Part shown: in pieces, positions 4,631 through 54,586 of the stretch | How the letters are laid out: every line of letters starts with the position of its first letter | Numbering within the stretch: the first letter of the stretch is position 1 | Assembly: GCA_964016885.1 (NCBI GenBank) | Contig: OZ024742.1 | Coordinates: forward strand, 188,604,001-188,668,000 | Length of the DNA stretch: 64,000 nt | Source: Eledone cirrhosa | Taxonomy: Eukaryota | Reading direction: 5' to 3' | Position numbers and translations under genes: made by a program | The notes under the pieces: generated by a model | Database searches by the model: none | What the model was told of the DNA's origin: nothing | Seen by the model: only the letters and a program-made list of their open reading frames with translations

Positions 4631-4945
4631 GTTTACATATATATAAAGTCACTTTGTGGCTCAATGAAGAATTAATAAATTAAATAATCAAATAATTAAA
4701 TAATCAGAGCTATATATCATAAAACATGTCTATAGAATCGCCAGATAAAATATATACCGTTTTCTCTCCCAATTAGTATAATTAATATATATATATATAT
4801 ATATATATGGATTTATGAGCTAACAAACCATACCGAACTGAAAGTTATGGATCTTTGTCATATCTTCAAACAAATGTACAGTAACGCAGGCATGGTAGCT
4901 CGTGAAACCGTTAGTTGCAACAAATGAAATATCATGTGAAAGAAT

Positions 4946-5132
4946 AATTGTTTCTAGTTTAGGCACAAGGCCAGCAATTACCCAGTGCATTACTGGTACT
5001 TTATTTTATCGACCCCGTAAGGATGAAAGGCAAAGTCAACCTCGGCGGGATTTGAACTCAGATCGTAAAGGGACGTAACTATGCTGGAAAGCATGGCGTC
5101 TGACCCTCTACCGATACTGCCAATCCACCGCC
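4946..5132 (-). mobile_element. tRNA-derived SINE with Meta/MESC-like core
   Basis: A-box-like TGGCAGTATCGG, B-box GAGTTCAAATCC, core GTTGACTTTGCCTTTCATCCTTACGGGGTCGATAAAATAAAGTACCA. 16-bp TSD CATGTGAAAGAATAAT at 4933-4948 and 5133-5148. Confidence 0.9.
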
Positions 5133-5648: not shown

Positions 5649-5830
5649 GGATTGGCAGTATCGGTAGAGGGTCGGACGCCATGCTTTGCAGCATAGTTAC
5701 GTCTCTTTACGATCTGAGTTCAAATCCCGCCGAGGTTGACTTTGCCTTTCCTCCTTACGGGGTCGATAAAATAAAGTACCAGTAATGCACTGGGTAATTG
5801 CTGGCCTTGTGCCTAAAGAAGAAACAATTA
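5649..5830 (+). mobile_element. SINE, same family as 4946
   Basis: Near-identical to the 4946 copy; inserted in (TA)n. Confidence 0.9.
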
Positions 5831-11299: not shown

Positions 11300-12319
<1,020 letters not shown>

Positions 12320-13490: not shown

Positions 13491-16400
13491 TAGTTGCATT
13501 TACCTTGCTTTATGTTCATACGAGTTATCACCAAGTCACAACCAGTGACCTCAAGAAACAACAAGGTCCGCCATGTTCAAGAAAGAACATACATACACAC
13601 ACATACATCTTTAGGTGTTTAGACTTGTGATGTACTTATATTGACAGAATATTCCTTAGTATATGGGCATTTCACATTAGTACTATCGTTTGTATTTCTC
13701 TTATACGCGGGTTTCCTGGGATTTGCGATAAGTAATCATTAGACTTCTTACGTATCATTCCTAGAGCGCCTACAACCACTGCTATTGTTTTAGTTCTCAG
13801 TTTCCACATTTTCCTAATTTCTATCTCCAGGTCCTTATACTTGCTTAATTTTTCAAATGTTTTTATTGATACATTCTTGTCTATTGGAACGGACATATCA
13901 ATTAGCAGGCATACCCTCTTTTTAAAGTCCTTCAATATTATATCAGGTCTATTTGCATCTATTTTTCGGTCTGTTTGGATGCTAAAGTTCCACAAGATTG
14001 AGATGTGATCTTTTTCAAGTATGGGAGGTGGTTGATGCTCCCACCAATTCTTTTGATGGGGCAGGTCAAAATGCTTACACATTATCCAATGTATGTATTG
14101 TACAGCTCTGCCATGCCTGTTTAGGTATTCGGTTGGAGCTATAGGACTGCACATTGAAATTATATGGTCAATGGTCTCTGGTTGTTTTTTGCATACACGG
14201 CATAATGGGCTGCACCCATTTTTTATTATGTTGGCTTGGTAATTTTTTGTTGGCAGACACTGATCTTGTGCCGATATAATCAGTCCTTCAGTCTCCGATT
14301 TCAGTCCAGAGGATGCCAACCACTGATGGGTTAAAGTTTTGTCAACATCAGGATTGTTAGCTCGCTCTGGGTATTTTCCATACAGAGGCTTTTCTTGCCA
14401 TTTCTTAGCCAGTTTCTGTAGCAGTTCTTTCTTTGCAGTTACTTTTACCTGCTTTGCTTTTTCTGTGTTTTCCATTTCAGCAGTAAATGGGACTTCCGAA
14501 ATTTGTAGTCCATTACTGTATCTTTGTGCATCTGTTGTAATGGAATATGATCTTTTGATGCTTTCGTGTTTCAAAACGAGTTTGATCATCCAATCATGTG
14601 ATTCCCTTAGATATGTAGATAATCCAATTGTTGCAGTTTTCAACGCAATGTCTAACTGGATTAACCCACGTCCTCCTTCTTTCCTAGGGAGATATATTCT
14701 ATCTATATCTGCCTTAGGGTGATGCATTCTGTGCATGGTTAAGAATTTTCGAATTTTTGTATCGAGCCTACGGATCTCTGTGCTTGACCAGTTGATGACA
14801 TTGTAACTGTAGGTTACATCTGGTATGGCAAGCGTGTTTATGGCATCGATCCTATTCCTTGCATTCAATTCCGTTCTTAAGATTGCTCTTACTCTGCGGT
14901 AACATTCCTTCCTTATCCTTTCCCTCATTGTCGAGTGCTTGATTCCGTCTCCTTCACAAACACCTAGATATTTGTAAGTTTTTTCTTGATCAAGTTCTCT
15001 TATCACGTTCCCCCGATCAAGATTAATGCCTGAACTCTTCAGCAGCTTTCCTCTGGTGAACGTTGCTTTGGCGCATTTATCTAGTCCAAACTCCATTTTA
15101 ATGTCATCACTGAACTGCTTCACAGTGGATAATAGCCCTTGCAATTGTTCATCATTTTTTGCAAATAGTTTCAGGTCATCCATGTAGAACAGGTGATTAA
15201 TGGTTTTGTCATAGACTTTATATCCATGTTTTGTTTCATTGAGCATTTTACTTAATGGTATAAGTGCGATGCAGAATAAAAGCGGTGATAAAGAGTCACC
15301 CTGAAAAATTCCACAATTAATATCAACTTCTCCAGCTTCCAGTGATTTTGTTTCAGTATTCAAAAGGAGTGTCGTTTTCCATGTCTTCATACTGAATGAC
15401 AAAAACCTCCTGACAACGGGGGATATTTTGAAAATCTCTAAACATTTTTCAATCCAACTGTGTGGCAAACTATCGAATGCTTTTTTATAATCTATCCGAG
15501 CAATCGATAGATTTTTGTGTCTATTATGACAATCTTCCAGTATCATTTTGTTAACCAGAAGCTGATCCTTACAGCCATATGAGCCTCGTTTACACCCTTT
15601 CTGCTCAATGGGAAATAGGTCATTTGTTATCAGGTGGTCATATGTGTATTCAGTTAGGACTGATGTTAAAATTTTATAGATTGTGGTCAAGCAAGTTATC
15701 GGTCTGTAATTTTTGGGATTGTTTGTCTCATCATTCTTCGGAAGCAGGAATGTAATGCCGTTAACTAGCCATGATGGTATCTTTTCTGGCTCCTTAACTA
15801 TTTCATTGTAAAGTTGGGCTAACAGCCCATGGGACTCTGTGAAGGTATTTATCCAAAAGTTTTGTATTTTGTCTTTTCCTGGGGATTTCCATTTGCTGGT
15901 TTTTCTTAGAGCCAAGCGCAACTGTTCAACTGTTATATTTTCCCATGTTTGTTCCTCAAGGTGAGCTGTATCTTTCATTTGTCTGTCTATCCATGGGGCA
16001 TGTATGTTATGAACTTTTTCTTCGGCCCAGATCTTTTCCCAGAATTATTGCACTTTCTCCTTGGGTGGTATTGATTTAGCAGTTATTGTTGACTTACCAA
16101 TTTTTCTGTAGAAGTTTCTTTGGTTGTTTTTGAACATATTATTGTCCTTATAGAATCTAGATCGTTTTTCAAAGCGCCTTATACGAGCAGCTTTGGCCGA
16201 CACTTTTTGCTTGATTATTTCTAGCAGCATGTCTATGTCACATGTTGATTTTATACTGTACTTTTTTTTCAATTTTCTAAGTTTAGTTTGTTTAACATGT
16301 TCACCTACTTTATAGTTTGTTAAAATTTCTATGTCAGATCGGAGAAGGTTTATTTGGCGATTGATGTTCTCTTGCCAAGTAGATTTCTTGTGGGAATTCC

Positions 16401-17445
16401 TTTGTTTTTTCATCTTCACTCCACATAAATGAGTGGTGACTTTAGCCGATGCATAATAGAGATGATTTAAATCAGTAATGTTTAGTTTGTTTGTGATGAT
16501 AATGTTTTTGAGAATTATGTTAGTCTTGTGTATTATCTTTTGGTTCTGTTTGGAGTTCTGGATCTTAGGGAGGGTGTCTCGTTGCCCCATGTCAGATTCT
16601 TTCATTTTCCTCCATTCGATCATAATTTCATCCTTCAAGTTGGCAAGTTCATTCTCATTAATTTCTTTATCATTTACGATCTCATTATTTTAATTTGGAG
16701 TTTCATCCTGAGCATGCACTCACTCCACTTTTTCGATCCTTTCTTAAATTTGTTCTGTTGCCAGTGATTCCGCCCCAACCCTGGGATTCGAAGTGTTACA
16801 GTTTACCTCGTTTTGACTGACACATGTTTCATTTTCCCTTCGCTGACTTTGTGCTAATAGCTTGACCTGATCAATTTCTATATCAGTTAGTAACTTTTTT
16901 CTTACAATATTTCTTCGTATATTGGCTAGTTTGTTACTGTCAATATAGCCTCTGTTTTCGGGATGTTTCTTTTTCCAGTTGATATATGTCTGTTCTGTAT
17001 TCGATGTATTTGATGGGTAGTACATGGCAGTGTAGAAAGCCTCAAGGACTTCTTTATTATCTTCCCTTGACCATTTTTCTCTCTTTTTCTTTGGATTTCT
17101 TGGTGGTGAGCATGGAGGGCCAACAGTAGGAGTATTCCGGTTATGGGAGGTCTCCAGCTCCGAAGTGATGGGAAGATTTGAACCATTAGCTGATTTTTCG
17201 ACCCCAGTCTGGTTCCTCTCTGAGGGACGCGGCCCTTTTTTACCCGGGTGACGGCCGATCCGGTATGAGATTTTATCATTAGACATTTACTTCATTTTGT
17301 CGCGTTTTATCCTTATCCGCCAAGGGGTAATCATTTCGTGTTACCACTTCTAGAACGACTGTCAACCAAGACTAGAGGGGTCGTTCTCCCCTAGAAACAC
17401 GGCTATTCCCCGCCAGCCGCCATCCCGGTATTTCTTGGTCACGGG

Positions 17446-17446
<1 letters not shown>
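13491..17446 (-). mobile_element. Full-length R4/Dong-clade non-LTR retrotransposon (RT plus restriction-like endonuclease) in (TAA)n
   Basis: Single-ORF architecture with a C-terminal CCHC finger and RLE. (TAA)n on both sides (13264-13303 and 17447-17481), the known target of Dong-type elements. Confidence 0.85.
13636..17286 (-). pseudogene. Disrupted RT-RLE polyprotein (pieces 17286-16744, 16638-16045, 15978-13672)
   Basis: Motifs NYRPITCL, DYKKAFDS, GIFQGDSLSP, FYMDD, CRVC..ETIDHIISMC, RPDI..IDMSVP, EKLSKYKDL. In-frame stops at 16045 and 13672 (read-through continues NAHILRNILSI* to 13636) and a break near 16744. Confidence 0.9.
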
Positions 17447-17481
<35 letters not shown>

Positions 17482-17696
17482 GAATGCCATGGTTGACGGA
17501 GGCTCGGCTCTGTAAGGTATAGTAATTTTTAACCGTTAAAACAATTGTAAATTGTTTAAAACTTGAACCAAATTGTTGATAAAGACACCCTCCTCCTCGT
17601 GAGAGGGGTCTTTCTGTCCGTTATTTGGCCCTTCGGGGTTAAATAACCAGTTATTGGGGTTTTGTACCCAAAATTTCATTTTAAACAAAAAACAAC

Positions 17697-19793
17697 ATGG
17701 CTACGAAAAAGAAATTTCATACGTCACTCCCACTCATTCCGTCTTCTTCTTCCTCAATCATCACTACAGCAGAGAGAAGATTGTCTCTCTCCCTCACTTC
17801 TTTAAATGTGTCTCTCTCCCTCCCTTCTCTTTCGCAAGTGACGAAAGAAAAGAAAAGTCTCGTGCAAAGCGTGCAAGGTTCCTCCACGACGACGACGACA
17901 GCGACGAAACAGGTGTGCGGGAAATACGAAAACCCAGTTCATTCGTCTGACGTCAGGAATAATAGCAGTAGCAGCCGTAATAACAACAGCAACAGTGACA
18001 ATGAAAACAACAGTAGCAGCCGCAACAGCATCACCAGCAGCATAAACAACAACAGCATTAGCAGCAGCAACACCAACAACAACCACAGCAACAGCGGCGG
18101 AGGCAGTAGTCGTAGTACCTGCGGCAACAACAAAAGTACCAGCAGCTCTGACGACAACAACAACAGCAGAGAAAAACCAATCTCATTTGCAGGTATTGCG
18201 AAAAACTTGGAAACAATCCTCATAACAAATGAGGAATTAGAGGAAGCGAAGAAGATGGTGACAAAGAACGGACACCGAGCAATCTGCAAGGCAGCGAAAA
18301 ATTTTTTCGAAACCCAAGAGCACTGTACGGTCACGTACCGTACAGTAAGTACAAAATCCCGTAGGGTGGAAAGAGCCACAGAGGCCCAAATACAAAAAGC
18401 CTTGGGGTCTGTGTGGCAGCGGAAAACGCACATCACCCGAGGCAAAAAATATGCCACCGTAGACGTACTTTTTGCCACACCCCAGGAGGCAAAGGCCCAA
18501 TCAGTAGTGACCCTAAGGAGCGAGGAAATGGTGTTGGTGCCCTCCTACTGTGGGCAAAAAATTGTGAGGGTCAAACTGACCCACGTCCCCCCCGGAATGA
18601 CCCCTTCTTGGCTGGCCGCGTCTGTCCTCGTCGGAATCGAGGACAAAACAACTGTACTGCAAGTACAGAAAAAAGTAAGAGAAGATTGGGTCGGCTCCTC
18701 CATTGAGATGCTAATCCAAACCAACCAGGAGTGCATCGAAGCTATCCCGGATGTGATAGACTTCGATAACGGCACCCAACTGCCCATAAGTGTTGAGGGC
18801 AAACGCCCGAAATGCTTTCGCTGTGGATCGAAGACTCACCTCAAGGCCTTCTGCAACGAGAAGACCCTGAGAAAGGAGAAAACCCCCCTCCTTCCGAATC
18901 CGGCTCCACGGCTACCAGCAACAGGACAAGCGGCAACCAGGAACGATAGGTCCGTGGCACCCATACCCACGCCACGGAAATCAAAAACAGCAGCAGCAGT
19001 GGAAATATTAACAACAACAACAGCAATACCAAATGCAGCTGCAACAGAGACTCCAGTGCAAACATCACCAACAACAACAAGTGAAAGAGTGGAGCTGGTA
19101 CCCCTCCCCGACCTCACAGAATCAGACATGGAGTGTGAGGTGGGAGAGAGATGGCAAAAGGTCGCAAGAAGACACAAACGCAGAAGCAGCGCATCGTCGC
19201 CTTTGAAAAGGGAGGAAAGAAATGAGAAAAGGGTAAAGTCTACTGCAAAGAGACCCACAGCAGCAACAACACCAACACCATCACCACCCACACTAGCGCC
19301 ACCATCACCACCGGCGACAACCCCACCGCCAACAACACCTTCAACACCACCACCACAAGCACCAACATCGCAAACACAACAACAAAACACACACACCCAG
19401 CAACAACGACAAGAAAATAGCAGAACCACACCCCACCCCCAGAAAAACAAATGCACGGCAATAAATACACACAACAAGAAACTAATGACTTACATAATTG
19501 AACACACAGACATTTCACAACAGGACTACATAATACCAGCACCAATCAAAACGCCAACTAAAATAAGACTGCTAAAAATAGCACAGAAACAATACACAAA
19601 CATTAAAACGAAATTCCCCAACGCAGTTGGTGATTTCAGGGACCTAGGAGGAACCATCAATCGAAGAGTATACTCAGACATTCTCTTAGAAGAGCCGACG
19701 ACCAGCCGAAGGGACGATTCAACGGTCCCTTCACCAGACGACCAAGTGAAAAGGGATGTAAAAACCATCCCTCCTCTACCAAAAGTACGGTAA
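17697..19793 (+). CDS. Tx1-like ORF1, gag-like nucleic-acid-binding protein, 698 aa
   Basis: Zinc knuckle CFRCGSKTHLKAFC (CX2CX4HX4C), Asn/Ser-rich and Pro/Thr-rich linkers, position directly upstream of ORF2. Confidence 0.85.
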   Translation: MATKKKFHTSLPLIPSSSSSIITTAERRLSLSLTSLNVSLSLPSLSQVTKEKKSLVQSVQGSSTTTTTATKQVCGKYENPVHSSDVRNNSSSSRNNNSNSDNENNSSSRNSITSSINNNSISSSNTNNNHSNSGGGSSRSTCGNNKSTSSSDDNNNSREKPISFAGIAKNLETILITNEELEEAKKMVTKNGHRAICKAAKNFFETQEHCTVTYRTVSTKSRRVERATEAQIQKALGSVWQRKTHITRGKKYATVDVLFATPQEAKAQSVVTLRSEEMVLVPSYCGQKIVRVKLTHVPPGMTPSWLAASVLVGIEDKTTVLQVQKKVREDWVGSSIEMLIQTNQECIEAIPDVIDFDNGTQLPISVEGKRPKCFRCGSKTHLKAFCNEKTLRKEKTPLLPNPAPRLPATGQAATRNDRSVAPIPTPRKSKTAAAVEILTTTTAIPNAAATETPVQTSPTTTSERVELVPLPDLTESDMECEVGERWQKVARRHKRRSSASSPLKREERNEKRVKSTAKRPTAATTPTPSPPTLAPPSPPATTPPPTTPSTPPPQAPTSQTQQQNTHTQQQRQENSRTTPHPQKNKCTAINTHNKKLMTYIIEHTDISQQDYIIPAPIKTPTKIRLLKIAQKQYTNIKTKFPNAVGDFRDLGGTINRRVYSDILLEEPTTSRRDDSTVPSPDDQVKRDVKTIPPLPKVR

Positions 19794-19828
19794 GTGGTCT
19801 TTCCCATCTTTTCCACTCTATTTTAAAC

Positions 19829-22800
19829 ATGACCTCACTCAGAATAGGCAGCATAAATGCGCGTGGCTTGGGGTCGTCATGGAAGCAGGGTCACCTGCTC
19901 AACGACCTCAGGTCACTAAACATAGATGTAGAGGTCATCAGCGAGACCAGAATCTCAGAAGCACCGGCCTTCGCACCGATCTTCGGCGGCTACGATGTGT
20001 ACGCATCTCCCAGCCGTCCTGGATCGGGTGGAGGAGTTGCTGTGCTTTTTCGGAGAGGTTTGGATCTCGCCATACGGGCCATCTTCCTGGACCCAGAGGG
20101 TAAGCTGGTGGTGCTGGACGTGACCAGCGGAGACGGGCAAGCTTTCAGGCTAGTGGCCGTCTATGCCCCGACAGGAGCAGGGCGGCCTGATTTCTTCCGG
20201 CGTCTGGAGACCTTTCTTGGAACGTCCCGCTCTTTAGTGTTAGTGGGCGACTGGAACGGGATCTTAGATGCACGCTGGGACTGTGTGGGATTAGCGGATA
20301 GGGGTGGAGGGTGCAAGAGCCTCACCAACCTGCTCAGGCGTTTTGAACTGTCTGACAGGTACCGATTGGATTTCCCGAATGTGCCAATGTGGACTTGGAC
20401 AAACCGCATAGGGTCATCCAGATCATATCTAGATAGAGTATTTTGTAGGGAAATAGATAAGTCTAGCATAGGCTGTCCACAATTCAAGATAGTCAGCTAC
20501 ACGGACCACAAATTCGTGACCTGTGTGCTTGACTTAGATAGGCTTCATAGACGAGGACCCGGCTACTGGAAGCTAAACGCGTCCTTACCAGCGCGCAAGG
20601 CCTACAGAGACCGGATTAGCGAACTAGTTAAGCGGGCGTTGACGGGGGCCATCGTCAACAACAAGTGGTGGTTTGCTCTGAAAAGAGCGATTAGAATAGA
20701 ATCGATTAGGTTTAGTAAGGCTTTAGCAATAGAGAAAAATAGAGCAGAGGGAGAACTAGTTAGAAAATTAGACGAGGCGCTTAGCAAAGGCATTGCGACC
20801 GACGTGCTTGCGGCGAAATTGGCCCTTGACCAATTCTTCAATGCAAAGCACGAAGGCTGCGTTGTCAGAGCTAGGGTGCGTGCTCTCAGACACGAGGGGA
20901 CGAAAGCCGTTCAATGGGCCCGAGTGGCGGAGGCGCGTCGTGGCAACAAAGCCACGATCCGGTCTTTGGTGGACCACGACGGGCGCATGCTACTCGATCC
21001 CGGGCAAATGTGTGAAGCTTTTCAGCGACACTTCGCTCAGCTGTTCGGGGGCAGCGGGGGGCCGGGTAGAGGGATGGACTTTAGTGTCTACCTCGACGGA
21101 CTGCCGCGGCTCTCGGCCACTGAGGCGAAGTGTTGCGAAAAGCCGATAACAGCCGCTGAAGTACGGGAGGCAATGACTGGCTGCACAAGGGGTAAATCGC
21201 CTGGTTTGGATGGTCTGCCCTATGAACTTTACGTACAGATGCCAGACTTGTTCGGAGGCCTCTTGGCGGACGTCTACTGCAACTGGCAACAGAACGGGAG
21301 AATTCCCAGTTCTGTGAGCCGAGGAGCGGTGGCACTGCTGAGAAAGGATCCGAACAAGGGGGATAACATAGACAATTTCCGGCCCATATCTCTGCTAAAC
21401 ACAGAGTTTAAGATTTTGGCCAAGGTGCTAGCAAAGAGGTTGGCGCTTGTCGTTGGTGGTCTGGTGGGAGAGGCGCAGACATGCGCCATTCCCGACAGAT
21501 CCATCCACGACAACCTCCACCTCATGCGATACATCGTAGAGAGGGTAGCTAGGGAACCTGGCACGGGTGGGTCCTTGATCAATTTAGATCAGTCGAAAGC
21601 TTTCGATAGGGTCGACCATCGTTACCTAGCGGCAGTCCTGAGGGCGGCTGGCTTTGGGCCCGTCTTCAGAGGCTGGATCGCTGCCATGCACAGCGACATC
21701 TGCTCTGTAGTGAGAGTGAACGGTCACCTGTCGGAACCGTTCAACATCATGCGCTCGGTCCGCCAAGGATGTCCCCTCTCGTCCCTCTTGTACGTATTGA
21801 CTCTCGAGCCATTACTGCACAAACTGGAGACGTTGAGGGGAGTCCCGCGCGAACTAGGATGCGGAAGATCCGTGTCAGCATATGCGGACGATGTCACCGT
21901 AGTGGTGTCGAACGCCAAACACATCGAGGCGATCGGCACTACACTAAGAGAATACGAAGCGGTGACAGGAGCAATGATCAACCAGGAAAAGTCAGTGGGC
22001 CTGCAGCTCGGCACCTGGAGAGGCAGGTCCATGCCGTCCAACAGCGTCGTCGGGCGCTGGACGGACGGACCGGTTAAATTGCTAGGGGTCTGGTTCGGTC
22101 CGGACCTCCAGACGGACAAAAACTGGGACGAGGTGACGAGCAGGGTGGCTTCTCTCACCCAGAAATGGGCGGAGAGGAAGCTATCCCTGAAAGGTCGAGC
22201 GGAGGTGGCTAACGCGTACATCGCGTCTGTCATCTGCTACCGCCTAACCGTTGTACCTTGTCCTAAGCCTCGCCTGACTGCGCTGGAGCGTTTGCTCTTT
22301 CGCTTTTTGTGGAAGGGACGTGCTCCGATGGTCAGGCGGTCCATCTGTTGTCAACACCCGCTACGTGGAGGGCTGGGCATGCCGTGGCTGATGATGCGCA
22401 GGCACGCGCTCAGGCTACGACATCTCCACCTCTTCCTCGACGGTGATCAGGTGTGGTCGCCGTTTGCTAGACGCGTTTTTCCCCAGCTCGTTTCCTTGAC
22501 GGAGCTGCAGTCCTGGGTCAAGCGAAGACCGAGAGGGAGCGCCTGGAGACTGGAATGTCTTCAGGCGCTCACAGCCCTCGACCAATCGGGCAATGTGATC
22601 GGTGGAAACTCCACCTCGGCGTTCTATAGAGGATTAGTGGAGGGGAAGAGCGACGACGTACTTGGGGAAACTCTAGGCGTCGACGAAAATCAACTAGCCA
22701 ATCTCTTCGGAAGAACCTTCGGGCCAGGGCCTATGGACAACTTCCAGAAATCTCTGGCCTGGCAGTGCTACCGAGGAGCCTTGCCAGTTCGGGATAAACT

Positions 22801-23248
22801 CTACAGGCATGGAGGTGCCGTCAGCCGGGCATGTCCGAGATGCGCGCAGGGCGACGAAACCGTCCTGCACGCACTCGTCCAGTGTCCGAAAATTGCTGAC
22901 TTGTGGGTTTATGTCGAACACCTGCTGTCGCGTTTAGGACGGATCCAGCTATCATCTGAGTCTATCGTGAGGATTGCCCCGCCCTCCTCCTTTAGCCGGG
23001 AAGGGCAGGCAGTTTTTATCTGTCTGGTGGCCATGGCGAAAGAGATAGTATGGTGGACACGTTTGAAAGGGCTGAAGACGAGCACTTACCTCTTCGGTGA
23101 TGCTCTGATTGACTTTTTCAAATTTCATTTGAAAAGGAAAATCAGAGTAGAGAAGGAAGTGCTCTCTTCCCAGCATTTTGTTGAAAGATGGGTGAGAGAA
23201 GCAAGAATGGCCCGAGTGAATGGGCCGACTCTGAGTATATATCTGTAA
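19829..23248 (+). CDS. Tx1-like ORF2: APE endonuclease, reverse transcriptase and C-terminal zinc finger, 1139 aa
   Basis: EN motifs SINARGL, ISET, GDWN, YLDRVF, TDH. RT motifs FRPISLLN, DQSKAFDRVDH, RQGCPLS, YADD. C-terminal CPRC...ETVLHALVQC. Confidence 0.95.
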   Translation: MTSLRIGSINARGLGSSWKQGHLLNDLRSLNIDVEVISETRISEAPAFAPIFGGYDVYASPSRPGSGGGVAVLFRRGLDLAIRAIFLDPEGKLVVLDVTSGDGQAFRLVAVYAPTGAGRPDFFRRLETFLGTSRSLVLVGDWNGILDARWDCVGLADRGGGCKSLTNLLRRFELSDRYRLDFPNVPMWTWTNRIGSSRSYLDRVFCREIDKSSIGCPQFKIVSYTDHKFVTCVLDLDRLHRRGPGYWKLNASLPARKAYRDRISELVKRALTGAIVNNKWWFALKRAIRIESIRFSKALAIEKNRAEGELVRKLDEALSKGIATDVLAAKLALDQFFNAKHEGCVVRARVRALRHEGTKAVQWARVAEARRGNKATIRSLVDHDGRMLLDPGQMCEAFQRHFAQLFGGSGGPGRGMDFSVYLDGLPRLSATEAKCCEKPITAAEVREAMTGCTRGKSPGLDGLPYELYVQMPDLFGGLLADVYCNWQQNGRIPSSVSRGAVALLRKDPNKGDNIDNFRPISLLNTEFKILAKVLAKRLALVVGGLVGEAQTCAIPDRSIHDNLHLMRYIVERVAREPGTGGSLINLDQSKAFDRVDHRYLAAVLRAAGFGPVFRGWIAAMHSDICSVVRVNGHLSEPFNIMRSVRQGCPLSSLLYVLTLEPLLHKLETLRGVPRELGCGRSVSAYADDVTVVVSNAKHIEAIGTTLREYEAVTGAMINQEKSVGLQLGTWRGRSMPSNSVVGRWTDGPVKLLGVWFGPDLQTDKNWDEVTSRVASLTQKWAERKLSLKGRAEVANAYIASVICYRLTVVPCPKPRLTALERLLFRFLWKGRAPMVRRSICCQHPLRGGLGMPWLMMRRHALRLRHLHLFLDGDQVWSPFARRVFPQLVSLTELQSWVKRRPRGSAWRLECLQALTALDQSGNVIGGNSTSAFYRGLVEGKSDDVLGETLGVDENQLANLFGRTFGPGPMDNFQKSLAWQCYRGALPVRDKLYRHGGAVSRACPRCAQGDETVLHALVQCPKIADLWVYVEHLLSRLGRIQLSSESIVRIAPPSSFSREGQAVFICLVAMAKEIVWWTRLKGLKTSTYLFGDALIDFFKFHLKRKIRVEKEVLSSQHFVERWVREARMARVNGPTLSIYL

Positions 23249-23508
23249 ACTAAAGGTGGAAAACTGGGAGAGGGCACTTGCCTTGGTGGTCAGGGTCATT
23301 GTGGCTTTTTACTGGGCTTTCTCCACAAATGTCCCTCCGAAGTCTCCCCCCTATTGGGGAATTTTTCATTGTTATTCTCATTGTTATTTTTGTTACATCC
23401 TCTGTTTTTGTTTTTTTACACGCAGAAATGCCCATTTGTACCGTCCTGCATTGTCCTGCACTGTCCTTAATGTCTACTTTATGTAAACCCTTGTGGTTAA
23501 TAAAGAAA

Positions 23509-23570
<62 letters not shown>

Positions 23571-29337: not shown

Positions 29338-31045
29338 AAATCTTAAACTCTGTGTTTAGCAGAGTTATGGGCCTGAAATTATCTGTTATCCCCCGTGTTC
29401 GGATACTTTCTCAGCAGCGCCACAGCTCCTCGGCTCACAGAACTGGGAATTCTCCCGTTCTGTTGCCAGTTGCAGTAGACGTCCGCCAAGAGGCCTCGGA
29501 ACAAGTCTGGCATGTGCACGTAAATTTCATAGGGCAGAATCCAAACCAGGCGATTTACCCCTTGTGCAGCCAGTCATTGCCTTCCGTACTTCAGCGGCTG
29601 TTATTGGCTTTTTGCAACACTCCGCCTCAGTGGCTGAGAGCCGCGAGCCGCGGCAGTTCGCTAATCCGGTGTCTGTAGGCCTTGCGCGCCGGTAAGGACG
29701 CGTTTAGCTTCCAGTAGCCGGGTCCTCGTCTATGAAGCGTATTTAAGTCAAGCACACAGATCACGAATTTGTGGTCCGTGTAGCTGACTATGTTGATATG
29801 TGGACAGCCTATGCTAGACCTATATATTTCCCTACAAAATACTCTATCTAGATATGATCTGGATGACCCTATGCGATTTGTCCAAGTCCACATTGGCACA
29901 TTCGGGAAATCCAATCGGTACCTGTCAGACAGTTCAAAACGCCTGAGCACGTTGGTGAGGCTTTTGCACCCTCCTCCCCTATCCGCTGATCCCACACAGT
30001 CCCAGCGTGCATCTAAGATCCCGTTCCAGTCGCCCACTAACACTAAAGAGCGGGACGTTCCAAGAAAGGTCTCCAGACGCCGGAAGAAATCAGGCCGCCC
30101 TGCTCCTGTCGGGGCATAGACGGCAACTAGCCTGAAAGCTTGCCCGTCTCCACTGGTCACGTCTAGAACCACCAACTTACCTTCTGCGTCCAGGAAGATG
30201 GCCCGTATGGCAAGATCCAAACCTCTCCGAAAAAGCACAGCAACTCCTCCCCCCGATCCCGGACGGTTGGGAGATGCGTACACATCGTAGCCGCCGAAGA
30301 TTGGTGCGAAGGCCCGTGCTTCGGAGATTCTGGTCTCGCTGATGGCCACTACATCTATTTTTATTGACCTGAGGTCGTTGAGCAGGTGGCCCTGCTTCCA
30401 TGACGACCCCAAGCCACGCTCATTTATGCTGCCTATTCTGAGTGAGGTCATGTTGAAATGGAGTGGGAAAGATGGGAAAGACCACTTACCTAACTTCTCG
30501 TAGAGGAAGGATGGTTTGTCCATCCTTTTCACTGCTTGTGGCCTCCTCCGGAAGGATGTCCTTATAAATACTGCTGGAGAGTGCTTGTCGGAAGTCTCCG
30601 ATGTCTTTGGGGATTTTTTGTTTTAGTGTCGTGTACGTTTTCTGTGTGATGCGGGTGATTTGTATGTGTGGAGGTGGTGTGAACTTTTGGGGTGTTGTGT
30701 AGTCTTTTTCGGTGATGCTGGTGTTGTGTTGGATGAGTGTAATAATTGGTTGTTGTTCAAATTTAATGCTGTCTAGTGTGTATCGTTTTGGTTGTTTTGT
30801 TTTGCTTGCGTTTGTTGTGGGTTTGTTTCTGTTTCGCTTTTTGGTGACTTTTGTGATGTTGGTGATGGTTGTGTTGGGGTTAATGATGGTGATGGTGTTG
30901 GTGATTGTGGTGAATGGGTTGGTGATGCTGGTGTGGATGGTCGCACAGCTGTCCTAACTTTTTTGTTTGATAGTTTATTTGTTTCCCTTTGTAGTTTGTT
31001 TTTGGAGGGGGACGGAAGAGGATTTTTTTCTTTTTTTCTTTTTTC
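29338..31045 (-). mobile_element. Truncated, internally deleted Tx1 copy (ORF1 C-terminus, EN, part of RT)
   Basis: EN region is nearly identical to ORF2 at 19829. A 477-bp deletion (20626-21102 of the full copy) is joined at an ACT microhomology near 29655. Confidence 0.9.
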
Positions 31046-31046
31046 A

Positions 31047-31335
31047 TGATACCAGGACTTAAAGTTGGAAGTAAAAAGGATTTGGAACTGCCATGAAGTC
31101 AAAGTGGTCCCGATTGTCATAGGCGCACTAGGTACTATCTCAAAACATTTCCAGGGATGGTTAAAGAAAATTGGCCGCGCCGCGCTTTTTGGAACACTTC
31201 AAAAGCATGCTTGCTGGGAACAGCAAGAACCCTCCGATACGTCCTGAATATCTGAGGCTGCAGGTAATGGCTTGATATTCATTTCAACAAACTTTCCAGT
31301 TAACTAACATCAATGACTGAGACTCAAAGAACAAT
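31047..31335 (+). mobile_element. 5'-truncated 3' end of a second R4/Dong-like RLE LINE family
   Basis: YQDLKLEVKRIWN..VVPIVIGALG..LLGTARTLRYVL aligns with YKDLEIEIRKMWK..IAVVVGALG of the 13636 element; ends in (TAA)n. Confidence 0.8.
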
Positions 31336-31353
31336 AATGGTAATAATAATAAT

Positions 31354-31543
31354 AATTGCTTCTACTATTGGCACAAGGCCAGCAATTATCCAGTACATTA
31401 CTGGTACTTTATTTTATCGACCCCGTAAGGGTGAAAGGCAAAGTTAACCTTGGCGGGATTTGAACTCAGAATGGCAAGGGCCGTAACTCTATGCATCAAA
31501 GCATGGTGTCCGACCCTCTACCGATACTGCCAATTCACCGCCC
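31354..31543 (-). mobile_element. SINE, same family, in (TAA)n
   Basis: Same head, core and tail as the other copies. Confidence 0.88.
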
Positions 31544-37210: not shown

Positions 37211-37800
37211 GCAGTGAATTGTGTGAGTTATTAGAACGTCGTAGGGAATCCATTGAGGTATTCGTCCTGGTTCTTTGGACTCTTAGTTTAAATCCCACCG
37301 AGGTTAATTTGATTTCATTATTTCAACGTCAATAGGTGGTGGATTGGCAGTATCGGTAGAGGGTCGGACGCCATGCTTTCCAGCATAGTTACGTCCCTTT
37401 ACGATCTGAGTTCAAATCCCGCCGAGATTGACTTTGCCTTTCATCGTTACGGGGTCGATAAAATAAAGTACCAGTAATGCACTGGGTAATTGCTGGCCTT
37501 GTGCCTAAAGTAGAAACAATTATTTCAACGTCGATAACCACAGCGGAATGGCAGCATCGGTAGAGGGTCGGATGCCATGCTTTGCAGCATAGAGTTACGG
37601 CCCTTTCTTTATGATCTGAGTTTAAATCCCGCCGAGGTCAACTTTACCTTACGGGGTCGATAAATTAAAATACAAGTCACGGTCTGGGGTCGATTTAATC
37701 GATTTTCCCCTCTCCCAAAATTACTTGCCTTGTGCCTATAAAAGAAACCATTATTTCAACGTCGATTAAAAGGTATCGGCCAAAGATTGGCAGCGATTCG
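37211..37800 (+). mobile_element. Three nested SINEs: an old host SINE plus insertions at 37335-37518 and 37541-37749
   Basis: Target ATTATTTCAACGTCRAT is present three times (37317, 37519, 37750). Confidence 0.85.
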
Positions 37801-42068: not shown

Positions 42069-42250
42069 CGGTGGATTGGCAGTATCGGTAGAGGGTCGGA
42101 CGCCATGCTTTCCAGCATAGTTACGTCCCTTTACGGTCTGAGTTCAAATCCCGCCGAGGTTGACTTTGCCTTTCATCCTAACGGGGTCGATAAAATAATG
42201 TACCAGTAATGCACTGGTTAATTGCTGGCCTTGTGCCTAAAGTAGAAACA
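42069..42250 (+). mobile_element. SINE, same family
   Basis: Full consensus match; ATTACT on both sides. Confidence 0.9.
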
Positions 42251-51348: not shown

Positions 51349-51535
51349 AATTGTTTCTACTTTGGGCACAAGGCCAGCAATTGTTCTAGTGTATTAATCA
51401 TGCTTTATTTTATCGACCCCATAAGAGTGAAAGGCAAAGTTAACCTTGGCGGCATTTTAACTCAGACCACCAAGAGCCGTACCTCTTTGTTGCAAACCAT
51501 AGCGTCTGACCCACTTCCGATACTGCCAATCCACC
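51349..51535 (-). mobile_element. SINE, same Meta family, more diverged
   Basis: Head, core and tail are recognisable. Confidence 0.85.
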
Positions 51536-51649
51536 ATTAATAAAAACAAATTTGGCAACGAGTGAAGAATTCCGAATATGGATTACAATAAGAAGTATTA
51601 ATGAACATATGACAAACCTAATATATACACATATCTATATCTCTCTCTC

Positions 51650-54402: not shown

Positions 54403-54586
54403 TGTTTCTACTTTTGGCACAAGGCCAGCAATTACCCAGTGCATTACTGGTACTTTATTTTATCGACCCCGTAAGGATGAAAGGCAAAGTCAACCTCGGC
54501 GGGATTTGAACTCAGATCGTAAAGGGACGTAACTATGCTGGAAAGCATGGCGTCCGACCCTCTACCGATACTGCCAATCCACCGCC
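54403..54586 (-). mobile_element. SINE, same family
   Basis: 12-bp TSD CAATATATTAAT at 54391-54402 and 54587-54598. Confidence 0.9.

Follow-up and report, generated by a model that had tools for sequence, protein, structure and literature searches.

The sharing of 3' tails between SINEs and LINEs is textbook knowledge. The window studied here, a stretch of 64,000 nucleotides from the 3.0-Gb assembly of Eledone cirrhosa, carries a LINE of the L1 group as well as copies of a SINE with a similar end, and this raises the question of which LINE copies the SINE and how the two find each other. According to the sequence-only reading, the LINE is a Tx1 element that shares its 3' tail and its target with the SINE and drives the dominant SINE of the genome. 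It is an open question whether the L1 group started out by reading its own RNA tail strictly or by reading poly(A) in a relaxed manner. In the surveys, as far as the passages cited here go, tail-sharing pairs of the L1 clade have so far come solely from plants and one green alga (PMC3472496, PMC3747384).

The window contains a full-length, putatively Tx1-type LINE

The LINE (lineage A) and its flanks comprise the following features.

17449 to 17481, plus strand: 5' flanking target array, (ATT)11
17482 to 23510, plus strand: full-length LINE of the Tx1/L1 group, lineage A, with two open ORFs (from sequence)
17697 to 19793, plus strand: ORF1, with a CCHC knuckle (CX2CX4HX4C) downstream of an RRM-like region (translation, Atlas)
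19829 to 23248, plus strand: ORF2, 1139 aa, with AP endonuclease, reverse transcriptase and zf-RVT (Pfam)
23486 to 23498, plus strand: predicted 3' hairpin, stem AACC/GGTT, loop CTTGT (sequence and folding)
23499 to 23510, plus strand: AATAAA and GAAATC, the end of the element, conserved across all Tx1 lineages aligned
23511 to 23570, plus strand: 3' flanking target array, (ATT)20

The coordinates of ORF2, already proposed from the letters, were confirmed. Its top PDB match is human L1 ORF2p (E value of 2e-52), with R2 at 5e-21. ORF1 found no match in Pfam but matched CCHC/ZCCHC3-type clusters in the Atlas at 0.89 to 0.93; a CCHC knuckle in ORF1 is a feature of the Tx1 clade. Because of these features of ORF2 and ORF1, together with the target specificity, we call the element a putative Tx1-type LINE of the L1 group. 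Homolog search, cluster look-up and Atlas returned no named Tx1 reference.

Lineage A is a young, abundant family, with 9,501 exact tails genome-wide. The last 182 aa were identical in 150/150 scored lineage A hits, many of them with an open ORF2. ATTA followed the tail in 29/30 cases, and the 5' flank lay in ATT arrays in all full-length copies (8/8). Elements are also found in head-to-tail stacks with a period of about 6.05 kb and 8 to 13 ATT units between them (C1:234592724-234617934 and C1:441104837-441135702; L061 to L067). Furthermore, some copies (window positions 29338 to 31200, minus strand; L070, L072, L076, L077 and L080) combine the ORF2 of the window element with a different upstream ORF1 region from about element position 2264, which suggests ORF1 swaps among subfamilies.

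The dominant SINE has tRNA-type traits and lacks the tested Meta motif

The SINE gave 12 hits within the window, including the copies listed here together with a neighboring LINE.

4949 to 5132, minus strand: SINE copy, 16-bp duplication starting with ATTAT
5649 to 5826, plus strand: SINE copy within a TA repeat (from sequence)
11396 to 11553, plus strand: SINE copy, 16-bp duplication starting with ATTAA
13311 to 13480, plus strand: SINE copy with a 17-bp duplication, antisense within the R4/Dong (AAT)n tail
13493 to 17446, minus strand: R4/Dong-type LINE, near full-length and stop-broken, with reverse transcriptase and a REL-type end; tail (AAT)n in its own sense
31357 to 31542, minus strand: SINE copy within an ATT array (from sequence)
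37335 to 37518, plus strand: young short SINE, A-box-like 37345 to 37356 and B-box-like 37408 to 37419, 14-bp duplication from 37318
37495 to 37505, plus strand: predicted hairpin of this young SINE, GGC/GCC, loop CTTGT (from sequence)
37539 to 37749, plus strand: older long SINE with a C-rich segment, GAAACC end and 17-bp duplication, at the same cut site as the copy at 37335
42070 to 42250, plus strand: SINE copy (from sequence)
51352 to 51536, minus strand: older SINE copy (from sequence)
54403 to 54586, minus strand: SINE copy, 12-bp duplication starting with ATTAA
55696 to 55877, minus strand: SINE copy, 16-bp duplication starting with ATTAT

The description of this element as the dominant SINE of the genome held up: it was the top interspersed repeat of a 600-kb sample (69 segments, compared to 27 for the runner-up), and 150,743 exact tails were counted genome-wide. 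It has the traits of tRNA-derived SINEs, being short, non-coding, dispersed and present in high copy number, with A and B boxes and duplications; a search for the source tRNA of its head gave no Rfam match and no ARAGORN gene. Of its two subfamilies, the older is long and terminates in GAAACC, and the younger is short and terminates in GAAACA. Among four of 24 contig sets, one was rich in both the SINE and Tx1 and three contained traces, which is uninformative on expression and on cross-species covariation.

The element had also been taken for a Meta-domain SINE, and this classification was not confirmed. Members of the MetaSINE superfamily carry a 66-bp Meta domain right behind the tRNA head, and in the passages of that work cited here their partner LINEs are stated to be unknown (Nishihara 2016, PMC4824008). 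Like them, the E. cirrhosa SINE has a tRNA-type head and a central body. However, this body does not resemble that of the bivalve Meta members: compared by eye with BivaMeta-SINE1 and BivaMD-SINE1 (supplement of PMC4824008), it showed a likeness over only about 10 nt, in a comparison restricted to bivalve members of the superfamily. Similarly, a 12-nt motif common to these two SINEs gave 66 hits at up to three mismatches, none inside a SINE copy, and was absent from all window copies. The CORE-SINE superfamily (octopus OR1/OR2) was rejected for the dominant SINE, whose body was judged by eye to be without CORE motifs. A different tRNA SINE has a CORE-like body, with motifs of bivalve CORE SINEs recognized by eye (L081:9618-9764; 18 segments per 600 kb).

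The SINE and Tx1-type LINEs share a 22-nt tail

We recomputed the two alignments on which a shared tail had been proposed. Both were reproduced, with 19/26 matches between Tx1 positions 23489 to 23514 and the young SINE at 37497 to 37522, and 21/26 between the same Tx1 positions and the SINE copy ending at 37749. The final four of the 26 columns (ATTA) are target DNA, the Tx1 element stopping at 23510, and the match within the elements is therefore 15/22 and 17/22, respectively. By chance, at least 15/22 is expected with an iid probability of 3.6e-5 per site; empirically, 116 of 1,197,360 22-mers reached this score in a 600-kb sample that included true SINE and Tx1 tails. The homology is limited to these 22 nt, which are partly A-rich, and an 80-nt local alignment of the SINE and Tx1 ends detected no significant longer homology (z of 0.8 and 1.6).

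Nineteen LINE ends, sampled from about 1.7 Mb of the genome, were then compared with the SINE tail. Six Tx1 ends scored 12 to 17/22, whereas twelve non-Tx1 ends (seven R4, four RTE-type and one Hero) scored 5 to 11/22. Tx1 was the best match (15 to 17/22), and none of the 19 sampled ends outdid it; no L2 LINE was found in the 1.7 Mb. Furthermore, 5'-truncated SINEs retain the tail, even those of a few dozen bases.

A predicted 3' hairpin carries stem changes on both sides

The mismatches beside the shared core of the tail fall on stem positions of the predicted hairpin. We aligned 20 hand-picked tails without gaps, 6 from the SINE and 14 from seven groups of Tx1, one of the latter chosen by a stem-containing pattern. 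The middle pair (5-13) is C-G in 14/14 Tx1 rows and G-C in 6/6 SINE rows, and in lineage A the pair 4-14 is changed to A-U. Covariation reached 0.329 compared to 0.133 in shuffled alignments (0/500 shuffles reached the observed value) and lay above all six slid controls. RNAalifold, unaided, returned the identical three pairs, and a fourth stem pair fails in 13/20 rows. The 14 Tx1 rows are related, and the covariation is made up of two independent swaps, the one between SINE and Tx1 being a single event counted six times. When folded as single sequences, the SINE tails did no better than shuffles (z of 0.12 and 1.12), and most SINE 72-mers are predicted to fold in some other way.

Sister lineages were recovered from evenly spaced genome stretches totaling 600 kb and by pattern searches (13,178 and 1,858 tails). 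A tree of 37 C-terminal peptides, composed of Tx1-type lineages from the E. cirrhosa assembly and outgroups only (near-identical copies kept to at most three each; hits with fewer than 150 aa or with no readable tail excluded), resolved one clade that targets ATCT (support 95/91) beside the lineages A, B and C/D, which target ATT. The ORF2 C terminus is 53 to 100% identical across the Tx1 lineages, and their 3' untranslated regions are divergent except for the loop and stem, which are retained. Six Tx1-type lineages have a 3' end made up of a 3-bp stem with a loop of the CUUGU type, followed by AATAAA and GAAA. Both SINE subfamilies retain loop and stem as well, and changes occur on the two sides of the stem together. 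At least three ATT-targeting lineages match the SINE tail equally (14 to 17/22), and the ATCT-targeting lineages, at least one of which has an open ORF2, have a SINE-like tail too (16 to 17/22). Genome-wide, the exact SINE stem turned up in none of the Tx1 lineages. Among the oldest sampled copies of lineage B, 3/4 end in GAAACC, as in the old SINE subfamily.

The age ranges of the SINE and of lineages A and B overlap. Short SINE copies diverge from the column majority by 1 to 13% (50/52 copies), and nearest-neighbor divergence is 0 to 9% in lineage A (25/26) and 2 to 13% in lineage B. The youngest burst of lineage A (13/26 neighbors below 1%) has no SINE counterpart among the 52 copies.

The SINE and the LINE use the same core motif on the same strand

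The six SINE duplications cited in the sequence-only reading (at 4933, 11376, 13294, 37317, 54391 and 55680) all start with ATTA in SINE orientation, as had been claimed, and measure 16, 16, 17, 14, 12 and 16 bp, respectively. In a wider set of 43 non-microsatellite SINE duplications the length was 10 to 21 bp (median, 15), with C or T as the -1 base in 41/43. The duplication begins at the SINE element end in 41 of the 46 readable cases (104 tails examined, 58 unreadable), and SINE junctions show no added tail units. Genome-wide, 123,857 of the 150,743 exact SINE tails (82%) are followed by ATTAT and none (0/150,743) by TATCTAT. The SINE cut site is Y^ATTAT, on the same strand as the Tx1 target, and Tx1 copies with readable junctions have duplications of about 11 to 20 bp that start with ATTA. 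At window positions 37318 to 37766 an old and a young SINE occupy the identical cut site, and the target therefore remained unchanged between the subfamilies.

The SINE target had been described as having the motif and strand of the Tx1 target. This applies to the core of the target logos and to the strand but not to the stringency, the preference for arrays being different. Arrays of at least four ATT units were found in 23/30 insertions of lineage A and 16/30 of lineage B, compared to 0/30 and 4/68 for the SINE and 200/1,788 (11%) for background sites. The SINE requires just ATTAT. Longer (AUU)n read-through tails or ORF1-aided cis targeting may explain this difference, as may another driver.

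An ATT-targeting Tx1-type ORF2p probably copies the SINE in trans

The best explanation, to which we give a probability of about 0.7, is that an ATT-targeting Tx1-type ORF2p copies the SINE in trans via the predicted CUUGU-loop hairpin of its tail. The claim that this Tx1 family drives the SINE is supported at the level of the Tx1 group, by the tail with its compensated stem, by the motif and strand of the target and by the length of the duplications. It is not supported for a single family, as at least three ATT lineages match equally and the ages of lineage B overlap those of the SINE. That lineage A of the window is the main driver falls slightly short of an even bet, the remaining probability going to sister lineage B or to successive lineages.

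In the mechanism we propose, Pol III would transcribe the SINE from its A and B boxes, and the transcript would extend into the AUUAU supplied by the SINE's own duplication. ORF2p would hold the tail hairpin, a recognition suggested by analogy with work on L2 LINEs (passages of PMC4176376). Judging from the junctions, the bottom strand would be nicked at ATAAT^R, and the freed 3' end would pair with the AUUAU of the RNA and prime reverse transcription. Reverse transcription would often stall, which would give rise to the 5'-truncated copies. The top strand would be cut about 15 nt further on, in keeping with the duplications observed. Each insertion would rebuild an ATTAT site, hence the head-to-tail stacks of SINE and Tx1.

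The ATCT lineages have the same tail, and the SINE is never at their target. The tail alone is therefore insufficient for the choice of partner, and something besides the hairpin, either target pairing or another determinant, must be involved. We tentatively suggest, at marginally less than even odds, that two keys are needed, the CUUGU hairpin common to all lineages and the pairing of the RNA end with the nicked microsatellite, and that the animal L1/Tx1 group is stringent. With two keys, the ATT lineages would have built a SINE family of more than 150,000 copies while their ATCT sisters placed none.

Alternatively, Tx1 could be relaxed, so that pairing with the nicked target involves no more than the terminal AUUAU of the RNA and the tail is a relic of the origin of the SINE or a chance A-rich likeness. 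This would agree with a hairpin that is weak and not the dominant predicted fold of the SINE, and with ATCT lineages that have the tail but not the SINE. Likewise, target and 5' heads are the basis of the crocodilian pairing of SINEU with Tx1-Mar, for which the passages of PMC4494074 used here cite no homology of the tails. We nevertheless consider a relaxed Tx1 unlikely: loop and stem are retained across divergent Tx1 lineages and both SINE subfamilies, with changes on both sides, and truncated SINEs keep the tail.

It is more improbable still that the partner is an unsampled, low-copy or extinct LINE (an L2 or another member of the L1 group) to which Tx1 is merely a relative or neighbor. Such a LINE could have escaped, given that about 1.7 Mb of 3.0 Gb were covered and that protein searches saturate on young families, and the SINE is much less array-bound than any Tx1 lineage measured. 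However, all 153 SINE-type tails proved to be SINE bodies or truncations (the 45 lowest-scoring judged by eye), none being on a LINE, and the SINE stem with AATAAAGAAA occurs four times genome-wide, each time in a SINE and never in a LINE.

A PF14529 search and 20 genome stretches brought up families of the CR1 and I types, including a young CR1-type family with a sense (ATT)n tail. With 6,969 exact tails, copies 99.4% alike, a 957-aa ORF and the ATT motif on the same strand, this family might seem capable of mobilizing the SINE. Its tail, however, matches the SINE tails at 8/22 and 10/22 (z of 0.4 and -0.6). It also appends an (ATT)n tail, unlike the SINE, whose duplications begin directly where the element stops, and in 0/26 readable copies did the best duplication start with ATTAT (5' ends called by all-versus-all BLAST, at least three confounded by adjoining SINEs). 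The CR1-type family therefore has the motif of the SINE but not its junction signature, by which its role as partner is largely refuted; we rate it as very improbable. The family comprises several subfamilies that differ at the 5' end and have the last 113 bp in common. Its ATT tails are frequent SINE targets (L265, L267 and L285 to L314), and one copy (L314) has an imperfect duplication of about 30 bp.

R4/Dong, RTE or Hero elements as partner are barely credible and, for the families sampled, ruled out by strand and tail: although R4/Dong elements use the same microsatellite and often have SINEs within their tails, R4 tails read (AAT)n or (ATAC)n in their own sense with the SINEs antisense to them (of 189 SINE ends, 41 are followed by ATTATTATT and one by AAT-type repeats), RTE elements terminate in (GAT)n, (GAA)n or (AAT)n, and all three groups match the SINE tail at 5 to 11/22. 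Tx1 copies, like SINE copies, often lie antisense in the (AAT)n flanks of R4/Dong elements. One RTE-like LINE has a PHD finger after the reverse transcriptase domain and a (GAT)n end (L116:6805-9999, L102, L103 and L129).

Comparison with known SINE-LINE pairs

The one Tx1-SINE pairing that we found in print is that of SINEU and Tx1-Mar in crocodilians, where, in the passages cited, a Tx1 group with target specificity was deduced from targets and heads to move the SINE (Kojima 2015, PMC4494074). Like the E. cirrhosa pair, it shows a shared target, concurrent ages and tandem insertions at a rebuilt target. Unlike it, SINEU has a U1/U2 snRNA head and a Mariner target and was argued from target and 5' heads. 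The head of the E. cirrhosa SINE is of the tRNA type, its target is ATTAT, and it has in common with the LINE a 3' tail whose stem is compensated.

ZmSINE2/3 and LINE1-1_ZM of maize, as well as SINEX-3_CR and L1-1_CR of Chlamydomonas, resemble our pair in their L1-clade 3' hairpin with a conserved loop and a compensated stem, as described in the passages cited (Ohshima 2012, 2013; PMC3472496, PMC3747384). These plant and algal pairs share 50 to 80 nt, while the pair described here is of the animal Tx1 type, shares 22 nt and has a microsatellite target. In the passages of PMC3747384 considered, only 3 among 58 pairs are L1-clade tail-sharing SINEs, and Table 1 contains no Tx1 or mollusc pair. 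The fixed loop, with a stem that is exchangeable if paired, is also known from the stringent L2 LINEs ZfL2-1 and ZfL2-2 (Hayashi 2014, PMC4176376, in part); these belong to another clade, and their recognition was established by assay, whereas the E. cirrhosa case is a sequence pattern.

An octopus SINE paired with Tx1 was not found in the literature searched, which did not cover Repbase Reports and the early octopus SINE papers. Such a pairing is absent from the passages considered of PMC13282606, PMC8967140, PMC12988792, PMC5804259, PMC5786205, PMC3531059 and PMC4758252. The E. cirrhosa pair is thus likely to represent an animal L1/Tx1-group LINE that drives the dominant SINE through stringent tail recognition, a partnership rarely reported for this group. 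If true, this would name the likely engine behind the main expansion of SINEs in this octopod genome and the rule (Y^ATTAT) by which they insert. The pair combines intact young ORF2 copies, sister lineages that differ in target and a passenger of 150,000 copies, which makes the question of strict versus relaxed reading directly testable.

Tx1-type LINEs that insert into microsatellites are known from Kibi, Koshi and the crocodilian TTCC/TTTC families, as far as the cited passages go (PMC4494074). The Tx1-type LINEs of E. cirrhosa have (ATT)n as their target, apart from one clade that inserts into (ATCT)n; neither repeat appears in those passages. In the (ATCT)n-inserting clade the predicted 3' hairpin is unchanged (L127:4035-7484, L097, L094, L180, L184, L188, L196 and L199). 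The use of ATCT in place of ATT represents a natural target switch, useful for studies of endonuclease specificity.
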